DNA of 57,163 bases, counting the filler, from Candidatus Limnocylindrales bacterium (GTDB lineage: Bacteria > Moduliflexota > Moduliflexia > Moduliflexales > JAUQPW01), in assembly GCA_035559535.1 (NCBI GenBank). It is 6 parts of 6 records of this genome, joined end to end, with 100 filler letters (N's around TTAATTAATTAA, not from the genome) between each part and the next. Parts side by side here need not be neighbours in the genome. Positions count along the whole stretch, not along the records: positions 1 to 14,696 come from DATMBG010000019.1; 5 more parts are not named here. The stretch is one strand, 5' to 3'. The stretch's first letter is position 1; every line of letters begins with the position of its first letter. Below, one piece after another: positions 9,381 through 44,349 of this stretch. Below the pieces are notes generated by a model. It was not told the DNA's origin and did not search any database. It saw only the letters and a list, made by a program, of their open reading frames with translations. A program made the translations under genes and the position numbers.

Positions 9381-9560
9381 CTATAACGCTATATCTTTCA
9401 GGTTGTTTAATTCTTTATTATTGTTTTTTACTGGCTCGGGTCGAGACTCGACCTGACATGAGTTTGCCATTCAAGTCGATATGCCGAGGTACGGTAATAG
9501 CCAACGCATTAAAACAACATAGGCTACAATAAACAGCATTGATCCCAGCCATTCAGTCAT
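9381..9560 (-). CDS. Candidate small membrane selenoprotein, 59 aa: MTEWLGSMLFIVAYVVLMRWLLPYLGIST-U-MANSCQVESRPEPVKNNNKELNNLKDIAL (29 aa if UGA terminates)
   Basis: AAGGAGG RBS, ATG 9560, one hydrophobic helix, in-frame TGA at 9473-9471 and 29 more sense codons to TAG 9383-9381. A SECIS-like hairpin lies directly 3' of the TGA. Confidence 0.65.
9432..9470 (-). promoter_or_regulatory. Bacterial SECIS-like hairpin
   Basis: The mRNA 3' of UGA reads AUGGCAAACUCAUGUCAGGUCGAGUCUCGACCCGAGCCA. Upper stem GGUCGA/UCGACC with loop GUC (G at +24), lower pairings CUC/GAG and UGG/CCA. Confidence 0.6.
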
Positions 9561-9676
9561 GTTCAATATCCTCCTTAACCCCTATAGAGCTTTTCGTTTG
9601 TTCTAATAGCAATACGCTTTCTTTCGGATGCCGAGGTAATCAATGACATCTTGGTCGCATCTATCTTAGTATATTT

Positions 9677-9705
9677 ATTATACTCTCCTGTTTTGGTTTA
9701 TTCAA
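9677..9705 (-). promoter_or_regulatory. sigma70-type promoter for the 9560 small ORF
   Basis: Minus strand TTGAAT-N17-TATAAT. Confidence 0.7.
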
Positions 9706-9745: not shown

Positions 9746-9773
9746 GTACGGGCGTAAGGCATTACGCCCCTAC
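9746..9773. repeat. GTAG-type REP-like palindrome overlapping the RND gene stop codon
   Basis: Minus strand GTAGGGGCGTAATGCCTTACGCCCGTAC, a self-complementary hairpin. Confidence 0.65.
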
Positions 9774-12700
9774 GCGGAATGGGTCATGGGTCTCGGCTCA
9801 GTAATCACATGTGTCTGGGCAGGTTCAGATTTTTGTAATCCTTGCTTCTTTCTCTTGCTCAGATAGTAAAATATGGGTACGGTCATACGAGATAACAATA
9901 ATGAAGCGACTTCTCCGGCCATGAGTGAGATGGCTAAGCCTTGAAAGATAGGATCAAAAAGCATAACGGCGGAGCCGACAATGACTGCTGCTGCCGTCAG
10001 CATCATGGGACGGAAGCGAACGGCTCCAGCATCTACAACCGCATCAGCAAGGGACATACCTTGCTGTAGTCGGAGTTCAACAAAATCAACCAGGATAATG
10101 GAGTTCCGCACGACGATTCCGGCTCCAGCAATGAACCCAATCATGGAAGTTGCCGTGAAAAAGGCATCCCATAATCCATGGGCAGGTAATATCCCAACCA
10201 GGGAGAAAGGGATTGCAGTCATAATGGTAATCGGGGTTTTGAAGGATTGAAACCAGCCGACTACTAAAATGTAGATGAGAATCAGCACTGCCGCAAACGC
10301 TAAACCGAGATCTCGAAACACCTCATAGGTGATGTGCCATTCCCCATCCCACTTCATAGCAAACTTGTCTGTAATAAAAGGTTGCTGTGCGACATAACGT
10401 TCGAGTCCATATCCTTCAGGTAATCTCAACTGATCGAGAGCTTCGTTGAGTTTGAGAATAGCATAAACTGGACTCTCCTCTTGCCCGGCAACATCACCGG
10501 TTACATAAACTACGGGCATCAGATTCTTGTGATAGATACTCTTGTCAGCCACTTGCTGTTCGATCCGTACCAATGCACTCAAGGGAACAAGGTTTCCTTG
10601 TTGGCCTAAGACCTTGATATGCTTCAAATCCTCCACACTGGAACGCTCTTCTCGGGGTAATCGGAGCAGTATAGGAACATCCTCCTTCTCTTGTGGTTGA
10701 TGCAATAAGCCGATCTTTGTTCCTTCCAAAGCAATTCGGAGCGTGGTGGCAATCTGTTCAGTTGATATACCATTTAAAGTGGCTTTCTCTTTGTCGACAA
10801 CCCAACGATATTTGACCTGATCATCCTCGACATACCAATCCACATCCACAACGCCTTCAGTCTTATCAAAAATATCTCGGATCTGACGGGCGATTTCTAT
10901 CTGACGTTGATAATCTGGACCGTAAACTTCAGCAACTAATGTTTGAAGGACCGGTGGGCCAGGTGGAACTTCAGAGACTTTTATTCGAGCCTGATATTTA
11001 GCAGCTATCCGTTGGAGATCTGGACGTACTCGCTTCGCAATATCATGACTTTGTGCCTTTCGCTCACTTTTGGACGTAAGATTAACCTGAATATCCGCTA
11101 CGTTAGAACCACGTCGCAAGAAGTAATGACGAACGAGACCGTTGAAATTGTAAGGGGAGGCTGTGCCAATATACATTTGATAATTGACCACTTCAGGTAC
11201 AGTCCGGATATAATCTCCCAGCTCGTAGGTCACGCTGGCTGTTTCTTCAAGAGTCGTTCCCTCGGGCATATCAATAATCACTTGAAATTCACTTTTGTTA
11301 TCAAATGGCAACATTTTTACACGAACCCATTTAACTGCTAAAAGTGACAAAGAAGCCAATAGTAACATAACAACGATAGCTAAAAATCCGTAGCGCCAGA
11401 GAGGATTGTGAACGAGCCGGGTCATCACACGACGATAAAGTTGCGTAGACCATCCCTCCTCTGCATGAATAGTTCCTCCCTCTCGTTTAAGCAGACGCAA
11501 ACTAGCCCATGGCGTTACAATGAAAGCAACAAGGAGTGAGAATATCATCGCTGCAGACGCCCCTACTGGAATCGGGCGCATATACGGCCCCATTAACCCT
11601 CGAACAAAGGCCATAGGAATAATAGCACTAATTACGGCAAAGGTAGCCAGGATGGTAGGATTTCCTACCTCGTCCACAGCTTCGACAGCAATATCCAACA
11701 TTGAGCGTCCATGATTTTGCGGTAAATGATAATGACGGACTATATTCTCCACAACAACAATAGCATCGTCTACTAAAATACCGATGGAGAAAATTAAAGC
11801 GAAAAGCGTAATACGATTGAGGGTATAGCCATAAAGGTAGAAAACCGTCAGAGTTAAAGCCAGGGTGACAGGAATAGCAATAGCTACAATGCCAGACTCG
11901 CGTAATCCAATCGTTAACCAAATCAAAGCTGAAACGGAGATAATAGCAATAAACATGTGGAACAGTAACTCATTGGATTTCTCCTGAGCTGTTTCACCAT
12001 AGTTGCGCGTAATAGAAACCTGGACTTCGCCCGGGATCAATGTTCCCTTTAAGTGGTTCACTTTTTCAATAACCTGATCAGCTATCTTAATGGCATTAGT
12101 TCCCTTACGTTTTGCAATTGAGATAGTAACAGCCGGATAAACCGATTTTAATTCAGATTTTGAACCCTTCGACCTTTCAGAGGTATTCAAGATGCCACTT
12201 TCGACTTTGGATTCTGAACTTTGTTGACTGGACGCAGGTCCTATGCCGAACAGCACATAATCGGTAGGTTCCTCAGGACCGTCTTCTATTTTAGCTATAT
12301 CACGCAAATAAACAGGTCGGTTGTTGGCGACACTCACAACTACCTTGCCGACTTCTTCAGAAGTTGTCAAAAATCCCCCTGCCTCGACCAGAAATTCTCG
12401 ATTACCAGAAGAAAAACTACCTGATTGCAGTTGTTGGTTCGCCTGCTCCAATATGGGAACAACAACTGCTGGAGCGAGATGATAAGCGGCCATCTTCGCA
12501 TCATCAAGGGTGACCAGAACTTGCCGCCGTTGACCCCCAATGATTTTCACTTCTGAGACATCGCTAATCTCTTTAATTTGATCATGAACCTGAGCCGCTA
12601 TGCGTCGTAGCATAAAGTGGTCATAACGATCACTCCAAAGCGTCAGGGCCAGTATAGGGACATCATCAATCGAGCGTGGCTTGATAAGCGGTTGGCTTGC

Positions 12701-13087
12701 ACCGGGAGGGATCAAGTCAAAGTTAGCGAACATCTTTTGATTAAGCCGCACAATACTATTCTCTTCATCCTCACCCACATAAAACCGGACTATCGCCAAA
12801 GCATAACCTGGTGCCGAAGTCGAATAAATATACTCAACCCCAGGAATTTCCCAGAGCAGCTTCTCCATGGGTTTAGTTATACGTTCCTCGACTTCCTTAG
12901 CCGATGCCCCGGGCATTTGTACAAAGACATCAATCATCGGCACTATGATTTGTGGTTCTTCTTCTCGTGGGAGCAACAGCACGGCACCTATACCAAGCAA
13001 TATAGAAGCCACAATAATGAGTGGTGTCAATTTGGAGTCAATGAAGGCTTGCGCTACTTTTCCAGCGAGTCCAAGTTTTTCTCTCAT
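9770..13087 (-). CDS. RND efflux permease (AcrB/AcrD/AcrF family)
   Basis: 1105 aa with [23 protein letters not shown] and RFRPMMLT transmembrane motifs. Confidence 0.95.
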
Positions 13088-13150
13088 CTTAAATTAAGCG
13101 ATAAGTAACGGGTGATGAGTGACAAAAACTAATGATTCATCACTCATTAC

Positions 13151-14389
13151 TTAATTAGAAGCCAATGGTGCATTTGTGGATCGCACCTGGCTTCCGTCAT
13201 CCAATGCTTCAATACCTTCAACGACAACCTGATCCCCATCATTGAGTCCTGACAGAACCTCTACGCGGTCGCCGTATTGTTTTCCAGTCTTAATAAGTCG
13301 TAGACGAGCTATATGAGATGAATCCACGACATAGACATTAGTAAGTTGACCCCGTTCAATAATAGCCTTTTGCAAAACCATTATCACCTCCTTATGGCCA
13401 AGACTAAAATGAGCCCTACCAAAAAGCCCTGAACGTAGAATTTGCGGAGTATCGGTTTCCTTTGTTTCTGTTGGGAGATCTATCTTTACAGTATAACTGC
13501 GACTCGCCGGATCTGAAGCAGGTACAATCTCCGTAACACGACCCTCCAGCTCTTTATCTCCAAGGGCATCTATGCGTACACGGACGGGGTCTTTCAGATG
13601 AATCTTTCCTATTTGCGATTCTTCTACAGAAGCTTCAAGTCGATACTGCGTATCATCTTCAATGGTAAGAAGCGGTACCCCCGGTACGGCAAGAAAACCC
13701 ACATCGATTTGCCTGGCAGTCACAATCCCAGAGATGGGAGAAGTAATCCTTGTATAACCTAGATATATTTGAGCATTAGCGACATCAGCCTTTGCTTGAT
13801 CAATTTTTGCCAATACCTGGTTTTTCTTAGCCATCACAGACTGAAGGACTTTGTTAGCCCTGTCTACTTCAGCATCTGCCATTCTGTACTTAGCCTGTGC
13901 CTCATCGAACTGCTGCTGACTGATTATCTGACTTTCACGAAGAGACTTATAACGATCGAAGGTCGAGGCCGCGAGGGCCTTGTGGGCTTCAGCAGCTTCC
14001 TTACTGGCTTCTGAGGCCCGAATAGTTCGCTCCACCTCCTCAAGCGCGTCTTGGGCTTCACGCAACCCTGCCTGCGCTTTCTGAAGTTGGGCCCTTGCAT
14101 CGCGATCATCGATTTCAATCAATAATTGTCCGGCACGTACACGATCTCCTTCATGAACATGTATAGTCTTAACATACCCTATGATCTTTGAGGACAAAAC
14201 GCTGGTCGTTTTCGATCGAACGGTTCCTATAGCTTCATAATAACCTTCTATGGGAGATAACCTTACTGTTTCAACTTTCACATCTTTAACCGTAGAAGTT
14301 TTCTCTGGAGTAGCTTTTTCCTTCTCTCCACAGGAAGTTACTAAGATACCAAGTAAGTTTATTAAGGGGATAACTGTTTTCTTTCGCAT
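13151..14389 (-). CDS. RND efflux periplasmic adaptor (MFP) lipoprotein
   Basis: Lipobox VTSC, VHEGDRVRAGQLL, ITSPISG and VEVLSGL; directly upstream of the RND permease. Confidence 0.93.
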   Translation of the reverse strand: MRKKTVIPLINLLGILVTSCGEKEKATPEKTSTVKDVKVETVRLSPIEGYYEAIGTVRSKTTSVLSSKIIGYVKTIHVHEGDRVRAGQLLIEIDDRDARAQLQKAQAGLREAQDALEEVERTIRASEASKEAAEAHKALAASTFDRYKSLRESQIISQQQFDEAQAKYRMADAEVDRANKVLQSVMAKKNQVLAKIDQAKADVANAQIYLGYTRITSPISGIVTARQIDVGFLAVPGVPLLTIEDDTQYRLEASVEESQIGKIHLKDPVRVRIDALGDKELEGRVTEIVPASDPASRSYTVKIDLPTETKETDTPQILRSGLFGRAHFSLGHKEVIMVLQKAIIERGQLTNVYVVDSSHIARLRLIKTGKQYGDRVEVLSGLNDGDQVVVEGIEALDDGSQVRSTNAPLASN

Positions 14390-18611: not shown

Positions 18612-18911
18612 ATGGAGAATCCTCTATACAGATACTCAGTTGTTGTAGCAGTTAAAGACCTGGTTTCCTGCGAGCTGGCCGGGGAGATGGTTATCCTGCA
18701 TCTCAAGGATGGGATATATTACGGTTTGAATCCTGTAGGGACCCGGATTTGGAATCTTATCCAGGAACCGACAACCGTGGACGAAATTCGTGGAGTCCTT
18801 TTGAGGGAGTACGACGTTGAAGAGGAGCGTTGTGAGCGTGATTTACTCGTGCTGCTTCAGGAGCTGGCAGGCAAAGGTCTCATCGAGGTAAAGAATGAAA
18901 CGGTTGTATAG
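18612..18911 (+). CDS. Lasso peptide RiPP recognition element (B1, PqqD family)
   Basis: GEMVILHLKDGIYYGLNPVGTRIWNLI...EYDV...DL..LL.EL...GLI PqqD pattern. Confidence 0.92.
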   Translation: MENPLYRYSVVVAVKDLVSCELAGEMVILHLKDGIYYGLNPVGTRIWNLIQEPTTVDEIRGVLLREYDVEEERCERDLLVLLQELAGKGLIEVKNETVV

Positions 18912-19335
18912 GTTCTTGTCCCTTCCCTCTCGGGATCGACATCTCCTGATTAAAGCTGCGCTTCTGCTTGGGGTAATCCGGTTAGGGTTATGGTTGCTGG
19001 CCTTTCAAACCCTGCAAGGTCTTCTTCTGAGAATACGATGGAAGTCCGCAAGGTTACGAGAAGCCGATCCTTTATCCCTTGAGCGGATTGCCTGGGCCAT
19101 CCGGGTGGCCGGTCGGTATGTACCTGGAGTGACCTGTCTGATTCAGGCTCTGGCCGCTCAGGTACTCCTTGAGCAGGAAGGTCATCCTGCTTGCCTTCGC
19201 ATCGGTGTTGCCAAAGACAAAAATGGGCGATTGCAGGCCCATGCCTGGACTGAGAGTGGGGGTAAGGTCGTGGTAGGTGGCGGAAATCTGTCCTCCTATA
19301 CGCTGTTATCTACCCCGGCTGGGAAAAAGTTATGA
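18895..19335 (+). CDS. Lasso peptide leader peptidase (B2, transglutaminase-like)
   Basis: TCLIQALA catalytic Cys, LRIGV, and AHAW catalytic His; overlaps B1 and C. Confidence 0.92.
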   Translation: MKRLYRFLSLPSRDRHLLIKAALLLGVIRLGLWLLAFQTLQGLLLRIRWKSARLREADPLSLERIAWAIRVAGRYVPGVTCLIQALAAQVLLEQEGHPACLRIGVAKDKNGRLQAHAWTESGGKVVVGGGNLSSYTLLSTPAGKKL

Positions 19336-21227
19336 GTGCCATCGTTGGGATTTACTATCCTGATAACCGGCCTGTAAATTCCCTGCATCTGGATCACATG
19401 TTAAAAAGCCTGGCCCATCGGGGACCCGACGGTGCGGGGGCATGGCAGGAAGGACCGATGGGTCTCGGCCATGGAAGGCTGTGGACGACCCCGGAGTCTG
19501 TTCACGAAAAACTTCCCCTGGCAAACAAGACCGGGGATTTTATCCTGACTGCCGATGCCCGCATTGATAATCGCAACGAGTTGATAGCGACCCTGGAGAT
19601 TACCGACCCACCGTCCAACGAAATTACCGATGGTGAGTTGATTCTCAGGGCCTATGAGCAGTGGGGTGAACACTGTCTAGAGAAGCTGTTAGGAGACTTT
19701 GCCTTTGCTCTTTGGGATCGCAGAAGGCAGGTATTATTCTGTGCCCGGGATCCCTTTGGCGTTAAACCTTTTTATTATTATCATTCTGATCGGATCTTTG
19801 CCTTTGCCTCTGAAATTAAAGCACTTCTTTGTCTTCCAGAGGTACCACGACGGCTTAACGAAGTAAGGGTAGCCGACTACCTGGTATCGATCCTGGAGGA
19901 CAAGATTATTACCTTTTATCGGGAAATTTTCCGTCTTCCGCCGGGTCACTGTATGACCGTAGACCGCGAGAAAGTATCGATACACTCCTACTGGTCCCTG
20001 GATCCCACCCATGACATCCGCTACGGTTCAAACGAAGAGTATGCCGAAGCCTTCCACGATCTCTTCAGGGAAGCAGTTCGTTGTCGTCTGCGAAGTGCTT
20101 TTCCCATAGGCTCAACCTTAAGCGGAGGGTTAGACTCCTCCTCCGTTGTCTGTATGGCCCGGAAAATCCTGGCCCAGGACCATAGCCGGGGATTACAGAC
20201 GTTTTCTGCCATCTTTGATACGGTTCCCCAATGTGACGAACGGCCGTTTATCAATGCCGTTCTGGCTCAGGACGGATTAAAGCCGCACTATATTCCTGCA
20301 GATAGGTTGAGCCCTTTAACCGATCTGGAACGTATGTTTTGGCATGAGGATGAAGCCTTCTACACCCCTAATTTATTCATACACTGGGGCCTATACAAGG
20401 CCGCCCATCAACAAAATGTTCGAGTCTTTCTGGACGGTCTGGATGGGGATACCACCGTGTCTCATGGTCTTTCTTTGTTAACCGAACTTTTCCGTGCCGG
20501 AAAATGGTACTCCCTGATCATGGAAATTAAGGATCTCTCCCGGTATTTTAATCGCTCACCCTGGCGGCTTTTTCGAATGTATGTTCTTAGACCCTTCACG
20601 CCCAAACCGATACGACAGGTTTGGCGGGTACTCCGGGGACGGGCCCGGCCGGATTGGATGGTCGGTACGGTTATTAACCCTTATTTTGCCTCCCGTATCG
20701 GCCTGACAGAGCGTTACCAAACCTTGCTGAAGGGACACCTGGATGTGGCTTACTCTTCAAGAGAGAATCACTGGAGACGGCTCACGGCCGGTCTTATTCC
20801 CTTTGCCCTTGAAGTTGCCGATAAAGCTGCTGCGGCCTTTTCACTCGAACCCCGTTATCCCTTCTTCGACCGGCGATTGGTAGAGTTCTGCCTGGCCCTC
20901 CCTCCTGAACAGAAACTCTACCGGGGTTGGACCCGAATTATTCTGCGTCGTGCTATGGCCGATGTCTTGCCCGTGGAAGTCCAGTGGCGAAGGGACAAAT
21001 CGAACCTGGCCCCGAACTTCACCCAGGGGCTGTTGGCCTTTGAGCGAGAACGTCTGGAAGAGGTAATCCTGAACAACTCTAACAGGGTCGAGGAATAGGT
21101 GGATATTCCTGCTCTACGTAAAGCTTATCAACAATATCTGGATGAAAGAGATCCTTCCAGTGCCCTTACAGTATGGAAAACTGTGACGTTAGCTTTGTGG
21201 CTCCGCCAGACCGGATTAACTCCATGA
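19332..21227 (+). CDS. Lasso peptide cyclase (asparagine synthetase-like C protein), interrupted by an in-frame TAG at 21096-21098
   Basis: N-terminus MSAIVG lacks the AsnB Cys1. HRGPDG, DARIDNR, SGGLDSS and RYPFFD motifs are present. The frame continues 42 codons after the TAG (VDIPALRKAY...VWKTVTLALWL) to TGA 21225-21227. Confidence 0.88.
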
Positions 21228-21326
21228 ATTCTTTCAGAAAGGAGGTGGAGAAACGGCAACTAAACCCAGTAATTTATAGGAACCCGAGATAACCATCAAC
21301 CCTTTTCATGAAAGGAGTTTAAGACC

Positions 21327-21488
21327 ATGAAAAAAGAGGAAGCGAATTTGTTAGGGTTTGAAGGAGAGGAGAAGCCGACAAAGAAACCTTATCATGCCCC
21401 TCAACTCACGGTATACGGTACCGTGGAGCAGATTACAAGATATTTGGAGGGTCCTCCAGTCGATCTAACTTTAGGCTACCTGCTGTAA
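21327..21488 (+). CDS. Lasso peptide precursor (A), 53 aa: MKKEEANLLGFEGEEKPTKKPYHAPQLTVYGTVEQITR-YLEGPPVDLTLGYLL
   Basis: AAGGAG RBS, leader YxxPxL (YHAPQL), Gly and Thr(-2), core Asp8; lies between the cyclase and kinase genes. Confidence 0.9.
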   Translation: MKKEEANLLGFEGEEKPTKKPYHAPQLTVYGTVEQITRYLEGPPVDLTLGYLL

Positions 21489-21706
21489 CTATAGAAGTAC
21501 AGGAATTTCGATATAGTTAATGGTTATCCCCTATTATAGAGAGTTGGTATGATAAAAGCTATTGTCTATTCACCGTATTGACTTCTCTTAAATTAAAGAC
21601 TGTGGTCTTTATGAGGCTAGGCGGTTTATTCAATCAGAAGGATACGAGAGCATAGAGAGGATTTACCATTTCTGCGGGTTGGTATAATTTCCCGGAGGAG
21701 AGGCGC

Positions 21707-22597
21707 ATGTTTTCTTATCTGGCATATGGTCTGACGGTCCACTCCACTTTGTCCTTACCGGAGCTTGTACCGGGTGAAGCGGAAGCAGATGTCATGGTTC
21801 GTCTGGAAAAGGTAGCATACGGTCTGCCGGAGCCGGTGGATGGAAGGAGTCATTTTTGGATGACCGATGAAGGGATTTATCTTTTCTATGAAGAGGCCGG
21901 AACGTTCCTGATACGAGGGGGGAGGGAAATTCTTATAGACCCGGTTCCAGGAGTGGAGGAGCGGGTTCTTCGGCTTTTCATCTTAGGACCGGCTCTGAGA
22001 GTACTACTCCATCAACGAGGACTTTTAGTGTTCCATGCCAGTGCTGTTTCGATGAACGGTGCTGCGATTGCTTTTCTAGGCGGGCCGGGTTGGGGTAAAT
22101 CTACTACGGTTGCTGCCCTGTATGCCCGAGGGCACGGGGTAGTGGCGGATGATATAACGGCCGTTGAGGTAGCTAAAGACCATCCCTTGGTATTTCCGGG
22201 TTTTCCACAACTCAAGCTTTGGCCGGAAGCAGTCACGGCTCTGGGAGAAGATCCGGGAATGCTATATTCCCTTCATCCTCATCTGGAAAAACGTGGTAAG
22301 CGGATTACAAAGGGGTTTTCCCCTCATCCCTTACCCCTGCGGTGTATCTATGTCCTGGCCGAAGGCCAGATTCCTGAGATCGAATCTATCCAACCTCAGG
22401 AAACCTTAATAGAACTGATACGCCATTTCTATGGGATTAAACTGCTTCGATCCTCAGAGGTCTCTTCTCACTTCCTGCGATGTGCCAGCCTTGCTAAAAA
22501 AGTAGCCATCCGTCGCTTGAAGAGGCCGCGTTCCCTTTCAAGTCTCTTCAATGTGGTACAGATGGTGGAGGAAGACCTTGTCCGGAATTTCCAATAA
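21707..22597 (+). CDS. HPr-kinase-like lasso peptide kinase (PadeK/ThcoK-like)
   Basis: FHASAV, Walker A GGPGWGKST, VVADD and PQLKLW; located in the lasso cluster. Confidence 0.85.
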   Translation: MFSYLAYGLTVHSTLSLPELVPGEAEADVMVRLEKVAYGLPEPVDGRSHFWMTDEGIYLFYEEAGTFLIRGGREILIDPVPGVEERVLRLFILGPALRVLLHQRGLLVFHASAVSMNGAAIAFLGGPGWGKSTTVAALYARGHGVVADDITAVEVAKDHPLVFPGFPQLKLWPEAVTALGEDPGMLYSLHPHLEKRGKRITKGFSPHPLPLRCIYVLAEGQIPEIESIQPQETLIELIRHFYGIKLLRSSEVSSHFLRCASLAKKVAIRRLKRPRSLSSLFNVVQMVEEDLVRNFQ

Positions 22598-23792
22598 AAT
22601 TTCAATATGGGGTATTCGCCCCGAAGTCGAACTACTCCTGGATTGTGCCAGGACCCATATGGATCCTGAAAGGGCCGAACGAATTAAGAGAATATCGCAG
22701 GAGGGGTTAGACTGGGATTACTTGCTCCGGACGGCGCTGTTGCACAGAACGACGCCGCTTTTGTACTGGCACCTTAACATCCTCTGCCCGGAAGTTGTTC
22801 CGAAAACTATTCTGGATCAACTACGAGACTTTTTTCATGGTAATGTCCGGCGTAATCTTTTCCTGACCGGAGAACTGCTTAAACTCTTGAGCCTGTTGGA
22901 GGTCCATAAAATTACTGCGATTCCCTACAAAGGACCGATTCTGGCTCTGTCTGCATATGGAAATCTTGCCTTTCGGCACTTCGATGATCTGGACATCTTA
23001 ATCCGCAAGCAGGATATCTTGAAGGCCAAGGATCTTTTAATTTCCCAGGGGTACCGGCCGAAATATCCTTTCTTTTCCACACGTGAAGAAGCTTATCTGG
23101 AATTCCATCGACAACTCCCCTTTACCCGGGACGATGGCATAGGGGTGGTAGAGTTACATACGGCAACTACCCAGAAATACCTCTCTTTCCCCGATCCGGA
23201 GTCCTTATGGAGTCGCCTTACTCCGGTATCTTTCCAGGGTACCCAGGTTCTGACGCTCTCTTCCGAGGATTTACTCCTTATTCTCTGTATACATGGGGCC
23301 AAACATTTATGGGAAAGGATAGGATGGATCTGTGATATTGCCGAACTGATTCGAACCCATCCCGACATAGACTGGGAATGGACACTGGAACAGGCCAGGA
23401 CCCTGGGTGGAGAGCGGGCCTTGTTGCTGGGCCTTTATTTAGCTACCGATCTTCTGGGCACTTCCCTTCCCCAGGAAATCTCTCAAAAGCTGTCCGATCC
23501 GGTGGTAAAAAATCTTGCCCGGCGGTTATCCAACAAACTTCTCCAGAAGTCAAACCCTCGACCTGGAATTTTCGAACCCTCCCTTTTCCAACCCCTTTAT
23601 CTCCAGATGCGGGAGCGTTTACAGGACAGGGTTCGATATGGTCTTTATCTTCCCTATCTTGCCATAACCCCGACCCGCGAAGACCATCAATTTCTACCCC
23701 TACCGGCATCTTTCTTTTTTCTTTATTATTTGATTCGGCCAATCCGACTGACCGGAAAGTACTTCTGGAGGCTCTTTCGGCGTCTTCTCTGA
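22578..23792 (+). CDS. Nucleotidyltransferase family protein (NTP_transf_5-like), lasso-associated
   Basis: PYKGP...YG...RHFDDLDILI and LCIHGAKHLWERIGWICDI motifs. TTG 22578 follows GGAGG (alternative ATG at 22551). Confidence 0.85.
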   Translation: MSGISNKISIWGIRPEVELLLDCARTHMDPERAERIKRISQEGLDWDYLLRTALLHRTTPLLYWHLNILCPEVVPKTILDQLRDFFHGNVRRNLFLTGELLKLLSLLEVHKITAIPYKGPILALSAYGNLAFRHFDDLDILIRKQDILKAKDLLISQGYRPKYPFFSTREEAYLEFHRQLPFTRDDGIGVVELHTATTQKYLSFPDPESLWSRLTPVSFQGTQVLTLSSEDLLLILCIHGAKHLWERIGWICDIAELIRTHPDIDWEWTLEQARTLGGERALLLGLYLATDLLGTSLPQEISQKLSDPVVKNLARRLSNKLLQKSNPRPGIFEPSLFQPLYLQMRERLQDRVRYGLYLPYLAITPTREDHQFLPLPASFFFLYYLIRPIRLTGKYFWRLFRRLL

Positions 23793-30146: not shown

Positions 30147-32516
30147 TCAATTTTTTCTACAACAAACCCAGGTCCACAAGGCAGCTACCGTGCCACATCC
30201 CAGAAGGGTCAGCCAGGCCCCCAGCTTATAGGAAACAGGTTGGTAAACGAATTCTACCGTATGAACTCCTGGATCAACAAAGACCGATCGAATCAAGGCA
30301 TCGGTCAGATACATTTTCTTTTCCTGGCCATCCACAAATACCTTCCAACCGGGAAAGTAGGGATCACTTAAAACTAAAAATCCGGCATGTTCCAGGTGAG
30401 CTTTTATAACGATCCGGGTTGGGGTATATTTTACTATTTCGGCGGTGGATTCATCAACCTCCGGAGCCTGATATCCGGTCAACATGGCCGGATCCTCCAC
30501 CGATCTCTCTAAAATAATCCGTCTTCTTAGATCAAATGACGCTTCCTTCAACCGTTTGATGGCGGCTTCTAAATTCGGGACGATCTCGGCCCGATGAACG
30601 ATGAAGGCTCTGGGAAAGGCGTTTTCATTCCGATAGACACAGGCATCCTGCCAAAAAACCAGGGTAAAAAAGGGCGCCGGGGGAGGAGCTCCGGGGTTGG
30701 TAATGACATATTTCAGGTTAAGAAGACTGAAAAATCGATTTTCCACATCGGGAACGCTGATTCCGGTAATATAAAAATTTTTGTAAGGACGGATCAACTC
30801 CCGGACAAAAGTCACATATAGACTATTAAACAGTCCATCGATGGCACCAAAATCATCCAGCCCATATCCGCTGGCCGTGGTGGGAAACAAGAAGCCGTGC
30901 AATCCATAAACCCGGAAGACTCCGGGTTCCTGCTTGATAAATTTTATATGGGGAGGGGGATTTGCATAGGAGTAGAGTTGAGAGCGTTTATAATGGGCTT
31001 TAGGGAGCCAGATAAAAAGTTCTAAAATCAAAAGAAAACCCAGAAAGACCGGAAGGATTAGGTGGAGGAAGAGGGGTTTTTTCCATAGTACGCCGGTTCC
31101 TATCCCGGTAAGCAGACAAAGAAGAGCCGGAATTTGCACCTGTTGAAGGGCATAATCCAGCTTGTTCTGTTCTCTCAACACGGTATAGTGAAGTCCCAGG
31201 AGTAATACCAGGGATAGAAGTCCCAGGAAGGCCGAGAGGGCCAGATAACGTATTCGAATACGACCTTCTTTCCATTGCTGTAAGAAGATACCTGCCAGGG
31301 CCGCCGTAGAAAACATAAATTCGCCCGTAAAGTAGCGGGTAAAGAAGCTGACCCGAAAGATGGGGAGATAGCCCCCCACCCATATATGAAAAGCGGGCCA
31401 AAGACGGTAAGCCTTTAAGAGGAAAAAGAGCACCATGAGGGTAAAAAAGAGGGCTTTTCCACGAAAGGCCAATCCTTGAAAACCCAGAGCCAGGATCATC
31501 AAAACAACCATTATACCGATATATCCCGGAAAGAGTTGCCAGTTCGAGTTATCCCAGGTAGTCTGAAGGAGGGGACCCCAGAAATAAGGAACCCACAATC
31601 CAAATAAATGGGAAGGAGAAACGGCTTCGAGTCCTACCCTAAAATATCGATCATCATGGATGCCGAGATTGGCAATTCTTAGAAATTCTGTGAAAGGAAG
31701 TAAAGTAATAGCCGAAAGGGCAAAGCCTAGAAGAGTCGCCCCTACAAACCAGCAGCCAGAAGTCAGAAGCCGGAAGCCGAAGGTGAGAAACCTTACCTTT
31801 GACTCCTGGTTTCCAGCTTCTTGAACAGTTCGAAATAAAAAGTAAATTCCCGTATAAAAAAGAGCAAAAAAAGTCGGCTCCGGATGCCCACCTAAAATGG
31901 CCAGGCCTATGAGAAGTCCGGTTAAACTTAAAGTTTTTAGACCCGGATTTTCCACAAGCAGCTCCGATACGTATAAGAGACCGGGGAGTAACATGACGGT
32001 GTTGATGTAAACCAAATTAAGATTTAACACGAGATGACCGCAGAACATAAAAGCTGCAGCCCCTACAAAGGCGGCAAAGCTTTCCAATTTCAAAAAGCGA
32101 CGAAAGAACCAGTAAGCCAAGACCCCGGCAATGAAAAATCTAAGAAGAATAAAGAAATCCCACATCTTCGGACTGGGATTCCAGAACAGGAGGAAATACA
32201 GGGGGAAGAATACCGCCGACTCCATGATGGCATTGAGGGGAATCCCCAGGGAAGAATGGGGATTCCAAAGGGGAATCTGACCGCTTTTATAAATTCTAGA
32301 AGTCAACTGAATCAGGGGTTCATAATAAGCGGACGAGGATATGGGATCGATAACATGATAGGGTTTGATAGGAGGTCCGCTGGTCAATAAGGTATAATCT
32401 AAAAAGACCACATCATAAAAAAAGATCCCCATGAGAAGGATAAATCCCATAATGGCCCAGAAGTCTTTTTTAATCCTTGCTTTTTTAAGCTGAAGTATCC
32501 TGAATCTTAAAGCCAT
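30147..32516 (-). CDS. YfhO-like membrane glycosyltransferase
   Basis: PLWNPHSSLGIP, GGHPE and the C-terminal FLVLSDPYFPGWKVFVDG YfhO motif. Confidence 0.85.
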   Translation of the reverse strand: MALRFRILQLKKARIKKDFWAIMGFILLMGIFFYDVVFLDYTLLTSGPPIKPYHVIDPISSSAYYEPLIQLTSRIYKSGQIPLWNPHSSLGIPLNAIMESAVFFPLYFLLFWNPSPKMWDFFILLRFFIAGVLAYWFFRRFLKLESFAAFVGAAAFMFCGHLVLNLNLVYINTVMLLPGLLYVSELLVENPGLKTLSLTGLLIGLAILGGHPEPTFFALFYTGIYFLFRTVQEAGNQESKVRFLTFGFRLLTSGCWFVGATLLGFALSAITLLPFTEFLRIANLGIHDDRYFRVGLEAVSPSHLFGLWVPYFWGPLLQTTWDNSNWQLFPGYIGIMVVLMILALGFQGLAFRGKALFFTLMVLFFLLKAYRLWPAFHIWVGGYLPIFRVSFFTRYFTGEFMFSTAALAGIFLQQWKEGRIRIRYLALSAFLGLLSLVLLLGLHYTVLREQNKLDYALQQVQIPALLCLLTGIGTGVLWKKPLFLHLILPVFLGFLLILELFIWLPKAHYKRSQLYSYANPPPHIKFIKQEPGVFRVYGLHGFLFPTTASGYGLDDFGAIDGLFNSLYVTFVRELIRPYKNFYITGISVPDVENRFFSLLNLKYVITNPGAPPPAPFFTLVFWQDACVYRNENAFPRAFIVHRAEIVPNLEAAIKRLKEASFDLRRRIILERSVEDPAMLTGYQAPEVDESTAEIVKYTPTRIVIKAHLEHAGFLVLSDPYFPGWKVFVDGQEKKMYLTDALIRSVFVDPGVHTVEFVYQPVSYKLGAWLTLLGCGTVAALWTWVCCRKN

Positions 32517-33044
32517 TTATTTTTTATTCCTGACCCTGCCGGAATAAATCCAGATAGCGACCACTATTCCACATCCCAGGAGGGTCAGCCAGGCTCCTAA
32601 TTTATAGGATAGGGGTTGGTAAATAAACTCTATGTGGTGGGTTCCTGACTCTACAAAGACCGATCGGATAAAGTAATTCGTCAAGTAGAGGGGGGTTTCC
32701 TTACCATCGATAAACCCTTTCCAACCGGGAAAATAGGCATCGGTTAAAACTAAAAAACCGGGGTGCTCCAGATTAGCTTTTATGAGAACCCGATTAGGGG
32801 TATAGCGTATTATTTCTGCCGTAGAACCATCCACCTCTGGAGCGTTATACCCGGTTAACATATGGGGGTCTTTAACCGCTTCCTCCAGAACAATCTGTCT
32901 TCGTAGATCAAAGGAAGCATCCTTCAACCGCTGAATCACCTCCTCAGGATCTGATACCACAAAAGCCCGATGCACCACAAAAACCCGAGGAAAGGCTTGC
33001 TCGTTGCGATAAACATTGGCTTCTTGTTGGTAGACCAGGGTGAA
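32517..33044 (-). CDS. C-terminal part of a YfhO-like protein, 5'-truncated at the contig end
   Basis: Open from the contig edge (FTLVYQQEANVYRNEQAFPR...); contains FLVLTDAYFPGW. Confidence 0.85.
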   Translation of the reverse strand, partial: FTLVYQQEANVYRNEQAFPRVFVVHRAFVVSDPEEVIQRLKDASFDLRRQIVLEEAVKDPHMLTGYNAPEVDGSTAEIIRYTPNRVLIKANLEHPGFLVLTDAYFPGWKGFIDGKETPLYLTNYFIRSVFVESGTHHIEFIYQPLSYKLGAWLTLLGCGIVVAIWIYSGRVRNKK

Positions 33045-33045: not shown

Positions 33046-33145
33046 NNNNNNNNNNNNNNNNNNNNNNNNNNNNNNNNNNNNNNNNNNNNTTAATTAATTA
33101 ANNNNNNNNNNNNNNNNNNNNNNNNNNNNNNNNNNNNNNNNNNNN
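33046..33145. other. Artificial contig linker
   Basis: N-run around TTAATTAATTAA. Confidence 0.97.
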
Positions 33146-35062
33146 GATGGAGGTAATGAGGCCGGTTTCTTCGGCCAGTCGGATAAAGTTTCCTGGGAGG
33201 ACCAGTCCCAATTCTGGGTGTTGCCAGCGGATCAAGGCTTCCACGCCGACCATCTTTCCGGTTTTGAGATTTACCTGGGGTTGATAGTAAACTGCAAATT
33301 CTTCTCGCTCCACAGTATGACGTAATTGAGCTTCCAGAACCAAGCGTTCAAGAGCCTTCGCATTCATGGTTGAAGTATAAAATCGGTAGCTGTTCCGGCC
33401 CCATTCCTTGGCCCGATACATGGCAGCATCTGCATTCTTTAATAAAGTCTGGGCATCTTTACCATCATTGGGATAGAAGGCAATCCCTAAACTTGTGGTA
33501 ATATGGAGTTCATGTCCATCCAGATAAAAGGGGGGTTTAAGGGTGTCCAGGATTCTTTGAGCAATCCTAGCCGCATCGTCTACCTGATGGATTCTCGGTA
33601 GGAGAATGGTAAATTCGTCGCCCCCCAGGCGGGAGATAATACATTCATCGCTTCCGAAGCGAGAGACGGTATCGCTTCTTCGTAAACAACCTACCAATCG
33701 TTTAGCAATTTCTCGCAACAACCGGTCTCCGAGGGTATGACCCAGGGTATCATTGATGGTTTTAAAGCGATCCAGGTCGAGGAAGATCAGGGCCAACGTT
33801 TGCTGGTTACGAGAAGCCTGGGCCAGGGCCAGATTGAGGCGGTCGTTGAAAAGTAACCGGTTAGGTAGACCGGTGAGGGCGTCATAATACGCAAGTTTCT
33901 TAACCATTTTTTCTGCCCGTTTGCGTTCGGTAATATCCGTCAGTGAGGAGATTACACCGGTAATGGCTCCCTTGGCATCCCGAAGGGGAGCTGCATTGAG
34001 GGATACAATCACTTGAGTTCCGTCAGGACGATGGATGACCTGTTCTACGCCATAAACGGGTTGACCCGTTCGTAGGACTTGAGTGAAGGGCCGCTTCTCA
34101 TCGGGAAAAGGTTTTCCTCGTAGTGTCGTAATTTTCCAATCCTTCATCCTCCTTCCCTCTTTTCCATCCTGGTGGAAGGAAAGCGAAGAGGCCGAAGAGT
34201 GGGATATTCCGTAAATTTTCTCTGCAGCAGCGTTGGCAAAAATAATTCGACCTTCCAGATCTTCTATCAGAATGCCATCAGCAACCGTCTCAACGATACG
34301 TGCCAGACGTTCTTCATTTGCCCGAAGGGCTTCTTCTGCCTGCCTGCGCTCAAACAATTCCTGTTCAATGGAGGTGTATAATCGGGCGTTATCCAGGGCT
34401 ATAGAGGCTAACTCGGCAAACCGGCTCAACAGCTTAACCTCGTCTTCGCTGAAGGTTCGATCTTCCTTAGAATAGGCCAGTCCGATCACCCCTACCGTCT
34501 GGGAATCCGATTTCAGCGGTACCGCTATAACTGCATGAAGGCCCTCACTTCTCATTTCCCCCTTACCCCCTCCTTTACCCTTCCCCCTGCTCTCCTCGTT
34601 TCCCTTCTCCCAACTTGGGAGGGGGGAATAGGAGGAGAGAGATGGAGAGGTGAGAGGGGGGAGGTAAGGAGCAGGTGAACGGCCCCACCAGGTCTGGTAA
34701 TCTTCCACAATCAAAGGCTGACCGGTTTGCCAGATAATTCCTGCGATCCCTTCTCCGGGTTTGAGACGGTGACCTGTATACCGGCTATAAGCCCCCATAC
34801 CTACCTGTAAAACCATCTCGGCTTCTCCCTCTTGAGCCAGGTAGATAAACCCATGAGGTGTTCCCAATAAAGCCCCGGCACGGGAAACAATGGCTTCAAG
34901 CAAGTCGTTCAATTTCAGCCGATTCATCAATCCCAGAGCCGTTTCGTGTAAAGCATCCAGATATTCATTCTGTTGGTTTAGTTTCTCCCTTACTCGCTTA
35001 CGCCGGAAAATTTTTTTGATGATTCGTTTTATCCTCATCTTACGAGCTCCCTCCCTATCCAT
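33146..35062 (-). CDS. GAF-PAS-GGDEF-EAL diguanylate cyclase/phosphodiesterase, 3'-truncated
   Basis: GAF (ASIALDNARL), PAS, DALTGLPNR, GGDEF and VEALIRW. Confidence 0.92.
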
Positions 35063-37028: not shown

Positions 37029-38123
37029 ATGGAGAAGGATAAAGAAAAACAAGAGCTTCGAGGGGATTCATCCTTTATGATGACCCGTCGAACATTCCTT
37101 CATAAGACCGTCGTAGCCGGTGTGGCAGTAGGTGCGGCCTCCGTCGGCTGGTTCCCTACCATCAACACGATGGATATTGCCCTCGGTGCAGAAACTTTTA
37201 AGTTTGCCTGGATTTCGGACACCCATCTCTATCCCAAGGATGTTAATACCCGTTTTGTTGAAAAGGCGGTTCGGGCTGCCAAAGAGGTTCAGGCCATGAA
37301 TCCTCCGGCAGACTTCCTCATCTTTGGAGGGGATTTATCCCAATTGGGTGAGAGGGTTGAGCTGGAGTTGGGTAGAGATATTTTATCCGAGATTACAGCC
37401 AAGAAATACTTTATCCCCGGCGAGCATGACTGGTATCTGGATATGGGGGAAACCTGGCGGAAGTTCTTTGGAGAGACTCCCTGGTACTTCGATCATAAAG
37501 GGGTTCGCTTCATCGGATTGAATACGGTGGCCTGGGCTCCGGATTACTGGACAGAGCGGAAATTGACTCCTAAGGAGCGGATGGCGGCTATGGCGACCCT
37601 GGATAGTATTATTGCGGGTCCCTGGGCAGCTGTAGAAAAGGAACAGCGTCAGTGGTTAAACGATAAGGCCTTATCCGGAATTTCCAAAGAAACTCCCATC
37701 GTACTGTTTACCCATACTCCTTTGTATGAGTACTATCCACCCTGGAACTTCTGGACTCGAGACTGGAAAGAGGTTCTAGAGATCCTCAAGCCGTTTAAAA
37801 ATGTAACCAATATTCATGGACATACCCATCAGGTTCTCTATAACGAGATCGGTAATATGCGTTCTATCGGTATGCTGGCGACTTCCTGGCCCTGGCCTTA
37901 TGCGCCCACGGGAGTGCCACCTCTCACCAAGCCCATGATTCGAGTAGACCCAGGAGATCCCTTTGATGGAGTTGGTTGGTCTAAGCTCACGGTAACCGAT
38001 ACCCAAAGAGTTGAAAATGAATATGTGATGTGGCGTAAACAGGTCTTTGCAGAGAGTCCTTCGGATCGTGGCGATGCCGATAACATCAACCAACGTCTGA
38101 CGCCACGTATTGTGGAATTCTAA
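37029..38123 (+). CDS. Tat-exported calcineurin-like metallophosphoesterase
   Basis: TRRTFL Tat motif; SDTH, GGD, GEHD, THTP and GHTH metal motifs. Confidence 0.88.
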   Translation: MEKDKEKQELRGDSSFMMTRRTFLHKTVVAGVAVGAASVGWFPTINTMDIALGAETFKFAWISDTHLYPKDVNTRFVEKAVRAAKEVQAMNPPADFLIFGGDLSQLGERVELELGRDILSEITAKKYFIPGEHDWYLDMGETWRKFFGETPWYFDHKGVRFIGLNTVAWAPDYWTERKLTPKERMAAMATLDSIIAGPWAAVEKEQRQWLNDKALSGISKETPIVLFTHTPLYEYYPPWNFWTRDWKEVLEILKPFKNVTNIHGHTHQVLYNEIGNMRSIGMLATSWPWPYAPTGVPPLTKPMIRVDPGDPFDGVGWSKLTVTDTQRVENEYVMWRKQVFAESPSDRGDADNINQRLTPRIVEF

Positions 38124-38171
38124 AAGAGAAGGAACCTTATCTTTCAACCTTTAGCCAAAGGAGGATGTGCC

Positions 38172-38633
38172 ATGATAAAACAAAAAAAACTCCTGGCCTT
38201 TATAAGTTTATTCATCGGATTTTTGGTATTTTTTTCGGCTCTCCTGTTGAAGGAAATCTGGATCCCACCCTCTGCAGAAGCTCATAAGGAACCTCATACG
38301 CCTCAACAGCTTAAAGCCTTCCAGGATCAGTTCATGGCCATGGTCATCGAAGGGGATAAGCTCTTTCATGGAGGGGGAAGTGTTAAACTCAGCAAGACCG
38401 GAATGGCCTGTGCCATGTGTCACCCCTATGCTTCGGATACACATCCCCATGAGTTCCCCAAGTATCAGGAGCAAATGGGAAAATTTGCCACCCTCCGGGA
38501 TATGATCAACTGGTGCATCGAAAAACCCAACGAAGGGGAGAAGATTGATCCGGAAAGTGACGCCATGAAGGCTCTGGAAGCTTATATTTACTGGTCCAAT
38601 AAGGGTTCCGTTTTGGATCCGGGTCGTCATTAA
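38172..38633 (+). CDS. Monoheme cytochrome c, SoxA/TsdA-domain-like
   Basis: N-terminal membrane/signal helix, CAMCH, FPKY...TLRDMINWC...ESDAMKALEAYI. Confidence 0.8.
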   Translation: MIKQKKLLAFISLFIGFLVFFSALLLKEIWIPPSAEAHKEPHTPQQLKAFQDQFMAMVIEGDKLFHGGGSVKLSKTGMACAMCHPYASDTHPHEFPKYQEQMGKFATLRDMINWCIEKPNEGEKIDPESDAMKALEAYIYWSNKGSVLDPGRH

Positions 38634-38710
38634 AAGACTGAAGAGGCTGGAAACAAGGGGTTAACCGGGCAGGTTTCTAACCTCGGGTTTCCAGCCTCCA
38701 GGTTGATGGT

Positions 38711-39547
38711 ATGTACCCCCTAACCCGACGACGCTTTCTCAAATTTTCGACCCTTTTCGGGATAAGCTGTAGCCTGTCCCTGGAGCCGGTCAAAACCCTG
38801 GCCGAAGAACAGATCCACCGGGTCACCGATGTGGATCACCTTACCGAGTTTGAAAAACTTCATCTTCCCAGGATTACGGCGCCTGATCTGACCGGAAATG
38901 GCCATGTCGTTCCCATTATCGTTGAAATGGATCACCCCATGGAACCGGATCACTATATTAAAAGTATTGAGATTCTCAATCGCAGGGACCCGGTGGTTTC
39001 CAAAGGACGATTCTATATGACCCCGGCCAACGGGGCTGCCTATCTCTCCACGCAGGTTCGTATGCATAGCGGCAGCTCGCAGGTGGAGGTTATTGCAGAA
39101 TGTAATCAGCACGGAACGTGGATTGCCCAAAAGCCGATTACTATCAAAGAAGGAGGGGGCGGATGTGCTACCGAAACCGATGCTCAACAAGAAGAAACCT
39201 TTGATATTCGTCCACCAACCCTTAGAATTCCTCATTTGATCGAGGAAGGAGCTATAGTTGCTGGGGAAATTATCAAAATTCAGGTAAAATTTAAACATCC
39301 TAGCCGAACCGGTTTAAAACTGGTAGACGGGCAGTTCGTTCCGGTTAAGCCCCCTTTTTATGTGAAAACCATGGAGGTCTTTTACGACGGAAATCAAGTC
39401 AGTTTGTATAAGATGACAGAGGCTCTCAGTGACAATCCATTTATCGGATTTAAACTCAGAATCCATAAAGAGGCTCCCCTGCGCATCGTTTTTACGAACA
39501 GTCGGGATCAACGGTTCGAGGTCACTGAGAATTTTAAATTCGGATAA
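38711..39547 (+). CDS. Tat-exported SoxY/desulfoferrodoxin-like plus SoxZ fusion protein
   Basis: TRRRFLK, EKLHLP, HPMEPDHYI, CNQHGTW, GGGGC linker, and the SoxZ-like KHPSRTG...ALSDNPFIGF. Confidence 0.78.
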   Translation: MYPLTRRRFLKFSTLFGISCSLSLEPVKTLAEEQIHRVTDVDHLTEFEKLHLPRITAPDLTGNGHVVPIIVEMDHPMEPDHYIKSIEILNRRDPVVSKGRFYMTPANGAAYLSTQVRMHSGSSQVEVIAECNQHGTWIAQKPITIKEGGGGCATETDAQQEETFDIRPPTLRIPHLIEEGAIVAGEIIKIQVKFKHPSRTGLKLVDGQFVPVKPPFYVKTMEVFYDGNQVSLYKMTEALSDNPFIGFKLRIHKEAPLRIVFTNSRDQRFEVTENFKFG

Positions 39548-39549
39548 AT

Positions 39550-40503: not shown

Positions 40504-40560
40504 GGATTGGAAAGAAGAGTGGGATAAGGAAAGACAAAAGGCAAACAGTAGTCCTCTATA

Positions 40561-40742
40561 ACACTGTTTACTTAATTTTGATCTCATGGTACGACTTTCA
40601 CTTCCCAACTCCCCGCTCCCAGCTCTTCCCTCTCTGCCTTCTCCCTCCCTGCATGCGGGGAGGGAAGAGGTGGGGTGGGGGGGGGAGAGGGGCCGGGGGG
40701 TGAGGGCCCTTTAAAAGTCAAGCAAAACTAAGTAAACAGTGT
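40561..40742. mobile_element. Complete MITE-like element, 182 bp
   Basis: 20-bp terminal inverted repeats ACACTGTTTACTTAATTTTG / CAAAACTAAGTAAACAGTGT (19/20 match), internal C-rich/G-rich hairpin, no ORF. Confidence 0.75.
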
Positions 40743-40775
40743 ACTACTTTTACCCTTTGTCTTTCTGTTTTCAGA

Positions 40776-42197: not shown

Positions 42198-42213
42198 GAG
42201 GAGGCCATAGAAC

Positions 42214-43848: not shown

Positions 43849-43935
43849 TCGGCGGTGAGACCGATAACCTGCGTAAAACGGAATATGCGAGACGTAGCTT
43901 TACGTTTCACGATTCACGTTTTACGCCTTAGATTA

Positions 43936-44130
43936 ATGAAAGATGTCTTTTTACTTGAGTTTCTAACCTTTTATGAGTTTTTTGTAGCCCTTCTCATGGG
44001 TTTTGCCGCTCTATGCTTTTTTATATGGGCTATTCTAACAGGAAATTTCAAAGATGTTGAAGCTATTAAGTATAAGGTCTACGAGATGGAGGTCGTCCAT
44101 GAAGAGGGAAGAAAAGGAAAAAACAGGTGA
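43936..44130 (+). CDS. ccoS: cbb3 oxidase maturation protein CcoS-like
   Basis: Single TM helix followed by FIWAILTGNFKDVE (CcoS W-A-x-x-x-G-Q-F-x-D pattern). Confidence 0.72.
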   Translation: MKDVFLLEFLTFYEFFVALLMGFAALCFFIWAILTGNFKDVEAIKYKVYEMEVVHEEGRKGKNR

Positions 44131-44338: not shown

Positions 44339-44349
44339 AGGAGAAGTTT

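Follow-up and report, generated by a model that had tools for sequence, protein, structure and literature searches.

The stretch of DNA analysed here, called the window below, comprises 57,163 nucleotides (nt), filler between the parts included, from the genome of a Candidatus Limnocylindrales bacterium (assembly GCA_035559535.1), in six parts joined end to end. Its minus strand carries, between positions 9381 and 9705, a small gene whose reading frame is interrupted by a TGA codon. The gene very probably encodes a membrane protein of about 59 residues in which the TGA is read as selenocysteine (Sec, U). Such a selenoprotein had been proposed in an earlier note on this DNA, together with a promoter, a ribosome binding site, the TGA, a 29-codon extension and a hairpin, and each of these elements is indeed present on the minus strand.

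In the direction of transcription, the gene begins with a promoter-like site, TTGAAT-N17-TATAAT (9677-9705), a sigma-70-like candidate that agrees with the consensus at 10 of 12 positions. The Shine-Dalgarno sequence AAGGAGG (9570-9576), read directly, stands 9 nt 5' of the ATG at 9560, and relatives have GAGGA or GGAGG in its place. Codons 1-29 (9474-9560) encode MTEWLGSMLFIVAYVVLMRWLLPYLGIST (MTEW...GIST), which consists of a transmembrane helix and a conserved RW-LP-x-x-G-x-x-T segment. The in-frame TGA, the proposed codon for U30, occupies 9471-9473. Codons 31-59 (9384-9470) encode MANSCQVESRPE, which would contain the second redox residue, C35, and then a variable hydrophilic tail. Taken together, the 29 sense codons 3' of the TGA give MANSCQVESRPEPVKNNNKELNNLKDIAL (MANSC...DIAL) with the frame unchanged, up to a TAG stop read from the sequence at 9381-9383. 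A stem-loop resembling a selenocysteine insertion sequence (SECIS) spans 9432-9469; its core, GGUCGA-GUC-UCGACC, lies at 9453-9439, with the loop G at 9447.

The window sequence by itself is within reach of chance. An open extension of 29 codons is expected about one quarter of the time, (61/64)^29. The region holds 3 promoter-like sites compared with 1.7 +/- 1.4 in shuffled sequences, which is not significant alone. For the 60 nt 3' of the UGA the folding energy is -12.5 kcal/mol (z = -1.9), a value reached by 9 of 200 shuffles. The feature gains its significance because the same TGA, downstream peptide and hairpin recur in all four related loci that were found.

The TGA column in related genes

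These loci come from one genome scan with the read-through peptide as the query, and each covers 20 kilobases (kb). The closest, L001, belongs to an unclassified bacterial metagenome-assembled genome (MAG) and is 95.3% identical to the window DNA over 8.9 kb. L002 and L003 are from Pyrinomonadaceae MAGs, and L004 is from a deltaproteobacterial MAG. Each of them reads TGA at the homologous codon, followed by ATG-GCN-AAN-TCN-TGY-...-GTC-GAG-TCT-CGR. Beyond this conserved part the tails are unrelated among the loci, hydrophilic, and 22-36 codons long.

Conservation beyond the UGA, and homologues with Cys in its place, had been named in the earlier note as support for read-through, and both are found. 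In the four-sequence alignment the eight residues M31, A32, S34, C35, V37, E38, R40 and E42 are invariant. The codon table has synonymous changes here at S34 (TCA/TCT/TCC), C35 (TGT/TGC) and R40, while on the 5' side of the TGA there are 12 invariant amino-acid columns whose codons are degenerate, 10 of them with synonymous variation. Synonymous changes thus occur on both sides, and the downstream frame is therefore translated in phase with the TGA. The codon itself does not behave as a variable stop: it is TGA in 5 of 5 DNA sequences.

A genome-wide reassignment of TGA can be excluded. Neighbouring genes are full length under translation table 11, and in L003 and L004 the same small gene terminates at TGA. 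A local search of six-frame translations with a hidden Markov model found no second copy and no Cys paralogue in the window or the loci.

The wider family was collected with a profile of the four in-frame read-through proteins, in which U was entered as C. Scored against 1.84 billion representatives, it returned 239 proteins at E <= 1e-3, and residue classes were counted in the 150 of these that were listed. In 89 of the 150, a Cys aligns exactly with the TGA (85 by pattern, 4 by eye), and a second Cys follows five residues on, at the place of C35 in the window. The motif of these Cys forms is ...RW-V-L-P-x-F-G-V-P-T-C-M-S-G-A-C.... Another 37 proteins end exactly before the TGA column, many of them 29 residues long. 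The column is W in 16 proteins and L, S, G or R in 7, each one base from TGA; the remaining protein (P0059) could not be classified. The tails of the W forms contain 1.76% W (10/568) compared with 0.08% (5/5991) in Cys-form tails, an excess of about 22-fold, so W at this column is most likely a TGA called under code 4. At the level of sequence, the residue pattern at the TGA column is the classical Sec/Cys pattern. As had been expected, gene callers miss or truncate such genes: databases hold 29-residue stubs, mistranslations with W, or nothing.

In an alignment of 29 sequences, G26, T29, C/U30 and C35 are invariant, and L22, P23 and M31 are nearly so. Since the Cys forms are single polypeptides with Met after the Cys, the conserved ATG is a residue and not a start codon. 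The short Sec-type forms mostly read ...LMRW... (30/42), whereas the Cys forms mostly read ...LNRW... and related sequences; this split marks the Sec forms as a recognisable sub-branch.

A word-based search with the 29-sequence profile extended the family to 475 proteins at E <= 1e-3. Where names are given, they are "hypothetical protein", with one "uncharacterized protein HemY", and the named sources include Planctomycetes, Acidobacteriota and Omnitrophota MAGs. Named members of this set carry no precomputed Pfam domain. Scans of the read-through protein, both of its halves and 15 family members against Pfam and NCBIfam likewise gave no family (for NCBIfam, at E <= 10 for the window protein and E <= 1 for the 15 members). 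A word-based homologue search with the window protein alone returned nothing, and alignment-based searches succeeded. The family profile matched nothing meaningful in a sequence search of the PDB, and one Cys form had no tblastn match among plasmids. In the ESM Atlas, one unnamed cluster of 123 members, commonest in Planctomycetota, has a score of 0.85 and can serve as a lead only.

The stem-loop and the membrane helix

The model of bacterial SECIS (bSECIS) elements in the legend to Fig. 2 of PMC13188914 allows an apical loop of 3-9 nt and an upper stem of 4-16 base pairs. As given in the same paper, it requires a G at loop position one or two, usually with G or U next to it, a UGA-to-loop spacing of 16-37 nt and a minimum free energy of at most -7.5 kcal/mol. 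For comparison, the hairpin was followed in the five TGA-type DNA sequences (the window and L001 to L004). The observed loop is GUC (GUU in L001), which is 3 nt long and begins with G-U. The upper stem has 5-6 base pairs (9 in L003), the spacing is 23 nt, and the 42 nt 3' of the UGA fold with -10.4 to -14.5 kcal/mol in all five. The hairpin lies within every constraint of the bSECIS model as quoted in PMC13188914.

Five core pairs are retained in all five sequences, one U-A pair having become U-G through a change from CGA to CGG. The codons for V37 (GTC) and E38 (GAG) lie inside the stem and have no synonymous change across the five sequences, which points to a constraint at the nucleotide level added to coding. 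The lower stem, formed by UGGC (9469-9466) and GCCA (9435-9432), is weaker and poorly conserved.

An example of a known element of this type is the SECIS of E. coli fdhF. Both are stem-loops within the coding sequence directly 3' of the UGA, with a small loop starting G-U. They differ in that the candidate loop has only 3 nt and lies about 4 nt further from the UGA. The loop G had been placed at +24 and likened to fdhF G23/U24. It is the 24th nucleotide after the UGA, but the equivalence does not hold: in fdhF the U of UGA is taken as position +1, and on that scale the candidate positions are G27/U28.

The single transmembrane helix that had been read from the sequence is also predicted by AlphaFold2 with the family alignment, which places one helix at residues 2-24 with a predicted local distance difference test score (pLDDT) of about 90. 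The rest of the protein is predicted to be unstructured (pLDDT 60-69), and the mean over the whole model is 71.7. Basic residues are absent from the window protein ahead of the helix, and five occur from R19 on; family-wide the 15 residues after the second Cys contain 452 K+R compared with 355 D+E. In a positive-inside count the N-terminal stubs are too short to decide. Judging by R19 and the basic tail, the N-terminus is probably outside and the C-terminus inside, with the U/C pair at the cytoplasmic face.

A lipoprotein precursor was considered and rejected. A lipobox has G, A or S at position -1 before the Cys and follows a positively charged n-region. In this family position -1 is always Thr and position -2 mostly P, Q or S, and the distance from the start to the Cys is about 30 residues; the N-terminus, with no basic residue before the helix of the window protein, gives no support either.

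Gene neighbourhoods and the rest of the window

In the window, the small gene stands behind genes for an HlyD-type adaptor and a resistance-nodulation-division (RND) permease, which share its strand, and is convergent with a Usp gene. In L001 the HlyD-RND operon is present as remnants (a 112-residue C-terminal fragment, and blastn pieces of 294 and 159 nt), and the small gene is intact. Positions 9348-9806 of L001 correspond to 9770-14389 of the window, and the 112-residue open reading frame (ORF) matches ACR_tran 847-940; this may reflect a real deletion or an artefact of MAG assembly. An RND gene lies 5 kb away in L002, and none is found within about 6 kb in L003 or L004. The earlier speculation, drawn from the adjacent pump, of a redox or sulfur-efflux role divides: the link to the pump is not supported, given the remnants in L001 and the distances in L003 and L004, and a looser sulfur role gains support from the neighbourhoods elsewhere.

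The position beside an RND pump recalls AcrZ, which is also a single-helix protein of about 50 residues. AcrZ is not known to have a Cys/Sec motif. A pump subunit of the AcrZ kind was rejected, as intact RND adjacency is found only in the window and Pfam similarity is lacking.

Genes of sulfur metabolism, namely ArsR-type regulators, TauE, and rhodaneses or persulfide-dioxygenase-like proteins, occur near the small gene in 4 of the 5 loci. In L002, genes for ArsR, the small protein and TauE follow each other in this order, with divergent SoxB-like and TlpA-like genes. L003 has ArsR, the small gene and DUF302, and divergent genes for rhodanese-YgaP, a persulfide-dioxygenase-like metallo-beta-lactamase (MBL)-rhodanese, two TlpA-like proteins and a two-domain rhodanese. 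In L004 the small gene is followed by a DUF442/Blh-N-terminal-like sulfurtransferase, an MBL-rhodanese, TauE and two SoxB-like genes. Finally, L001 has ArsR, rhodanese-YgaP and TauE 3.7-5.5 kb upstream. The three ArsR proteins (L001 5996-6346, L002 8508-8885, L003 9558-9932) are 50-64% identical and have a C-terminal C-x-x-x-C in common, which makes them one orthologous group.

Operons of the BigR type are described in PMC5823870 as oxidising H2S to sulfite. YgaV of E. coli, which is encoded with the rhodanese YgaP, is presented in PMC9774250 as an ArsR-type, sulfide-responsive homologue of SqrR/BigR. A role of the small protein in handling sulfur species is a tentative proposal, somewhat short of even odds, made because relatives place the gene behind ArsR and beside TauE, rhodanese-YgaP, DUF442 and MBL-rhodanese genes.

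The TM domain of YgaP-like proteins (transmembrane; DUF2892, PF11127) offers another comparison. Its C-terminus, of the form ...CP-x-Y-x-x-LGI-x-T-C, resembles the LP..G(I/V).T-C with which the small protein continues after its helix, and rhodanese-YgaP genes lie near the small gene in L001 and L003. Homology was rejected: there is no Pfam match, hhalign gives a probability of 0.5% against the YgaP-like protein of L003, and the small protein has one helix, not two.

Elsewhere in the window, positions 37029-46693 carry genes for a Metallophos protein, a SoxA/TsdA-type cytochrome c, a SoxY-SoxZ fusion, a YNCE-like beta-propeller, a P-type ATPase and subunits of a cbb3-type oxidase (COX1, FixO/cytochrome c), with the Sox genes at 37-40 kb. 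This Sox and respiration block, about 28 kb from the small gene, suggests a sulfur-oxidising host.

The remaining features concern other functions. A lasso-peptide-like cluster at 18895-23792 has a transglutaminase-like B protein (18895-19335), an asparagine-synthase-like cyclase (19332-21098), an HPr-kinase-like protein (21707-22597) and an uncharacterised nucleotidyltransferase (22551-23792). At 30147-32978, two adjacent ORFs of 789 and 153 residues match only the C-terminal 80 or so positions of the model for the membrane protein YfhO and could be a duplication or a fragment. In the GAF-PAS-GGDEF protein at 33098-35062 the match to EAL has reached profile position 64 of 236 when the ORF ends, and this domain may be truncated or frameshifted. 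Within 50043-52325, a 199-residue ORF that matches only the last 50 positions of an ammonium-transporter model is probably a transporter remnant; it is in frame with a downstream flotillin/SPFH gene, with one TGA between them.

Proposed mechanism, rivals and relation to known proteins

Comparison with relatives supports the membrane-anchored selenoprotein of 59 residues that had been proposed. That this is a genuine selenoprotein gene, from a large and widespread unnamed family of small membrane proteins, is highly likely. The full explanation, a Sec-containing membrane protein of about 59 residues whose UGA30 is recoded by means of a SECIS, is slightly less so, with a probability of roughly three in four.

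In this mechanism, the stem-loop a few nucleotides 3' of UGA30 would recruit SelB and Sec-tRNA(Sec), and the codon would be read as selenocysteine in the way usual for bacteria. The product would be a single-pass membrane protein with a helix at residues 2-24, a short flexible juxtamembrane segment and a variable charged tail. The juxtamembrane segment, G26-x-x-T29-U30-M31-x-x-x-C35, would carry U30 and C35 as the counterpart of the family's invariant C-M-S-G-x-C pair. This pair may form a membrane-anchored redox or sulfur-carrying site (a selenenylsulfide or perselenosulfide) for reactive sulfur species. If selenium or SelB were lacking, translation would stop at codon 30 and leave a 29-residue helix that lacks the active pair.

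A more ambitious version may also be considered. Here the protein would act in sulfide-stress regulons as a selenium/sulfur relay tethered to the membrane, from which TauE-type exporters receive sulfane sulfur or sulfite. The UGA would at the same time be a switch: with selenium the active form of 59 residues would be made, and otherwise the inert helix of 29 residues. About one third of the cluster representatives, in at least three phyla, would have turned to Sec within a widespread, uncatalogued family of single-helix membrane proteins of 45-90 residues that have a juxtamembrane C/U-M-x-x-x-C site and would be seen here for the first time. Taken as a whole, this version is unlikely.

Several observations weigh against the selenoprotein explanation or its link to sulfur. 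Genes for selA, selB, selD and tRNA-Sec are found neither in the 57-kb window nor in the four 20-kb loci. For the hairpin, RNAalifold finds conservation and no true covariation (a double change occurs in one pair, and 2 of the 5 sequences do not form that pair), single-sequence fold z-scores are weak (-0.3 to -1.9), and the minimum-energy fold of L001 favours another pairing; no SECIS family was among the Rfam matches at E <= 10, of which there were two at chance level, to a CRISPR repeat and a snoRNA. The window and L001 genes differ by 5 non-synonymous and 2 synonymous changes, a ratio that does not on its own demonstrate purifying selection. In L004 (10001-10160), 13 nt separate the Gly codon from the TGA compared with 15 in relatives, so that the N-terminal helix is read in a different frame from the TGA-ATG...Cys part, the downstream frame being kept; this is either an assembly error or a pseudogene. 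As for sulfur, no sulfur genes lie within about 10 kb of the small gene in the window, and tblastn with the ArsR, rhodanese-YgaP and TauE proteins of L001 found nothing in the 57 kb. The regulators fall below the NCBIfam cut-offs for BigR, TsoR and CmtR and have neither the usual N-terminal Cys nor the usual Cys pair of helix 3. Because their scores are below the BigR and TsoR cut-offs, they are called ArsR/SmtB-family regulators only.

Further selenoprotein genes were also sought. Among ORFs of the window and loci with one or two in-frame TGA codons, no convincing internal TGA was seen, and none of the UshA/SoxB-like, rhodanese and TlpA-like neighbours reaches the cut-off of a selenoprotein model in NCBIfam.

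The frame offset in L004 bears on a rival explanation with two genes, in which a 29-residue peptide ends at a true UGA and a MANSC... peptide starts by termination-reinitiation at UGA-AUG. Independent ORFs would tolerate the different frame of the upstream ORF in L004, an ATG stands directly after the TGA in all five sequences, and 37 of the 150 listed database entries are annotated as ending at the TGA column. The offset amounts to a shortfall of 2 nt in a single MAG, however, and 89 of the 150 listed relatives are fused, with Cys at the junction and a nearly invariant Met next. No Shine-Dalgarno-like sequence precedes the second ATG, and such an arrangement would give nothing to do to the conserved hairpin and its frozen synonymous sites; it is very improbable. 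Somewhat less so, and still improbable, is that the gene is a relic: the family would use Sec elsewhere, and the source lineage, having no Sec machinery, would make only the 29-residue stub or nothing useful. What remains intact in the window and L001 speaks against decay, since both keep the invariant positions, the TGA, the open 29-codon extension and the five core pairs. The flanking DNA has diverged by 4.7% and the adjacent RND operon is largely deleted in L001, yet the small gene is whole; a strong Shine-Dalgarno sequence and a promoter-like site are retained. All five replacements between the two genes sit at family-variable positions. The relic would nevertheless account for the missing Sec machinery in 57 kb, the 5 to 2 ratio, the weakened hairpin of L001 (loop GUU, sixth pair lost, -4.9 kcal/mol) and the separation of the window gene from the sulfur genes that accompany its relatives.

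The main functional rival to sulfur handling accepts the same selenoprotein and gives it a soft metal. In this case U/C-M-x-x-x-C would bind Cu(I), Hg, Cd or Ag, for sensing or efflux. Motifs rich in Cys and Met are typical metal ligands. The regulators score above the cut-off of the ArsR/SmtB "metalloregulator" model (94 and 90 compared with 55 bits), their similarity to CmtR being sub-threshold, and in the window the gene lies behind an RND pump whose adaptor is of the CusB/HlyD_D23 type. That RND protein matches multidrug-type models best, though, and not CusA/CzcA, and the pump is dispensable in L001. L002 has HupE/UreJ, YtkA-like and OEP-HlyD-RND genes 1.4-10 kb downstream, but the immediate neighbours in L002 to L004 are TauE, DUF302, the DUF442-like sulfurtransferase, rhodanese and MBL-rhodanese. 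Several of the selenoproteins in Table 1 of PMC13188914 are metal-binding or metal transporters. On balance a soft-metal role is unlikely, and less probable than one with sulfur species.

The preferred reading, a small membrane selenoprotein, can be compared with families already described. Table 1 of PMC13188914 (2026) lists 119 prokaryotic selenoprotein families, and no single-helix mini-protein with a UxxxxC motif is among the entries of that table. In the parts consulted of the deep-Sep and BSepDB papers, membrane proteins of this kind are not mentioned. Full-text literature searches gave no description of the family; supplementary tables were outside their scope, and an earlier listing is possible.

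The closest in motif is the LULAxC selenoprotein TsoA (NF045695), compared here through Table 1 of PMC13188914 and NCBIfam names. Both proteins have a short motif of Sec and Cys in which a hydrophobic residue and Ala come after U, U-L-A-x-C in TsoA and U-M-A-x-S-C in the candidate. TsoA lies in a neighbourhood with the ArsR/SmtB regulator TsoR and the rhodanese/DsbD-like TsoB, and the candidate lies near ArsR and rhodanese-domain genes. By that table the spacing differs, UxxxC in TsoA against UxxxxC in the candidate. The ArsR proteins of L002 and L003 match the TsoR model weakly (47-49 bits, cut-off 115). Identity with TsoA was rejected: there is no NCBIfam match, though models for TsoB and TsoR are in the library, and the motif is T-U-M-A-x-S-C.

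Other entries of Table 1, namely KCU-star/DUF466, OS_HP3 dual-CXXC, YeeE/YedE, MerT-like and SO_0444 transporters, are also tiny or membrane proteins with Sec near Cys. They too were predicted by comparative genomics alone and have links to sulfur or metals. As that table describes them, none is a single-helix protein of 45-90 residues with G-x-x-T-U/C-M-x-x-x-C, and there is no Pfam or NCBIfam similarity. A bacterial selenoprotein is thus a known kind of protein, and the family, its size class and its sulfur-regulon context appear to be new as far as could be checked.

If confirmed, the gene would add a new family to the prokaryotic selenoproteome, among the smallest and one of the few that are anchored in the membrane. 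It would also indicate an unrecognised component of ArsR-controlled modules for the detoxification of sulfide and sulfite, with TauE, rhodanese-YgaP and persulfide dioxygenase, in Acidobacteriota, Planctomycetota, deltaproteobacteria and others. The Cys and Sec relatives, 475 or more, would then constitute a natural experiment on why Sec replaces Cys.

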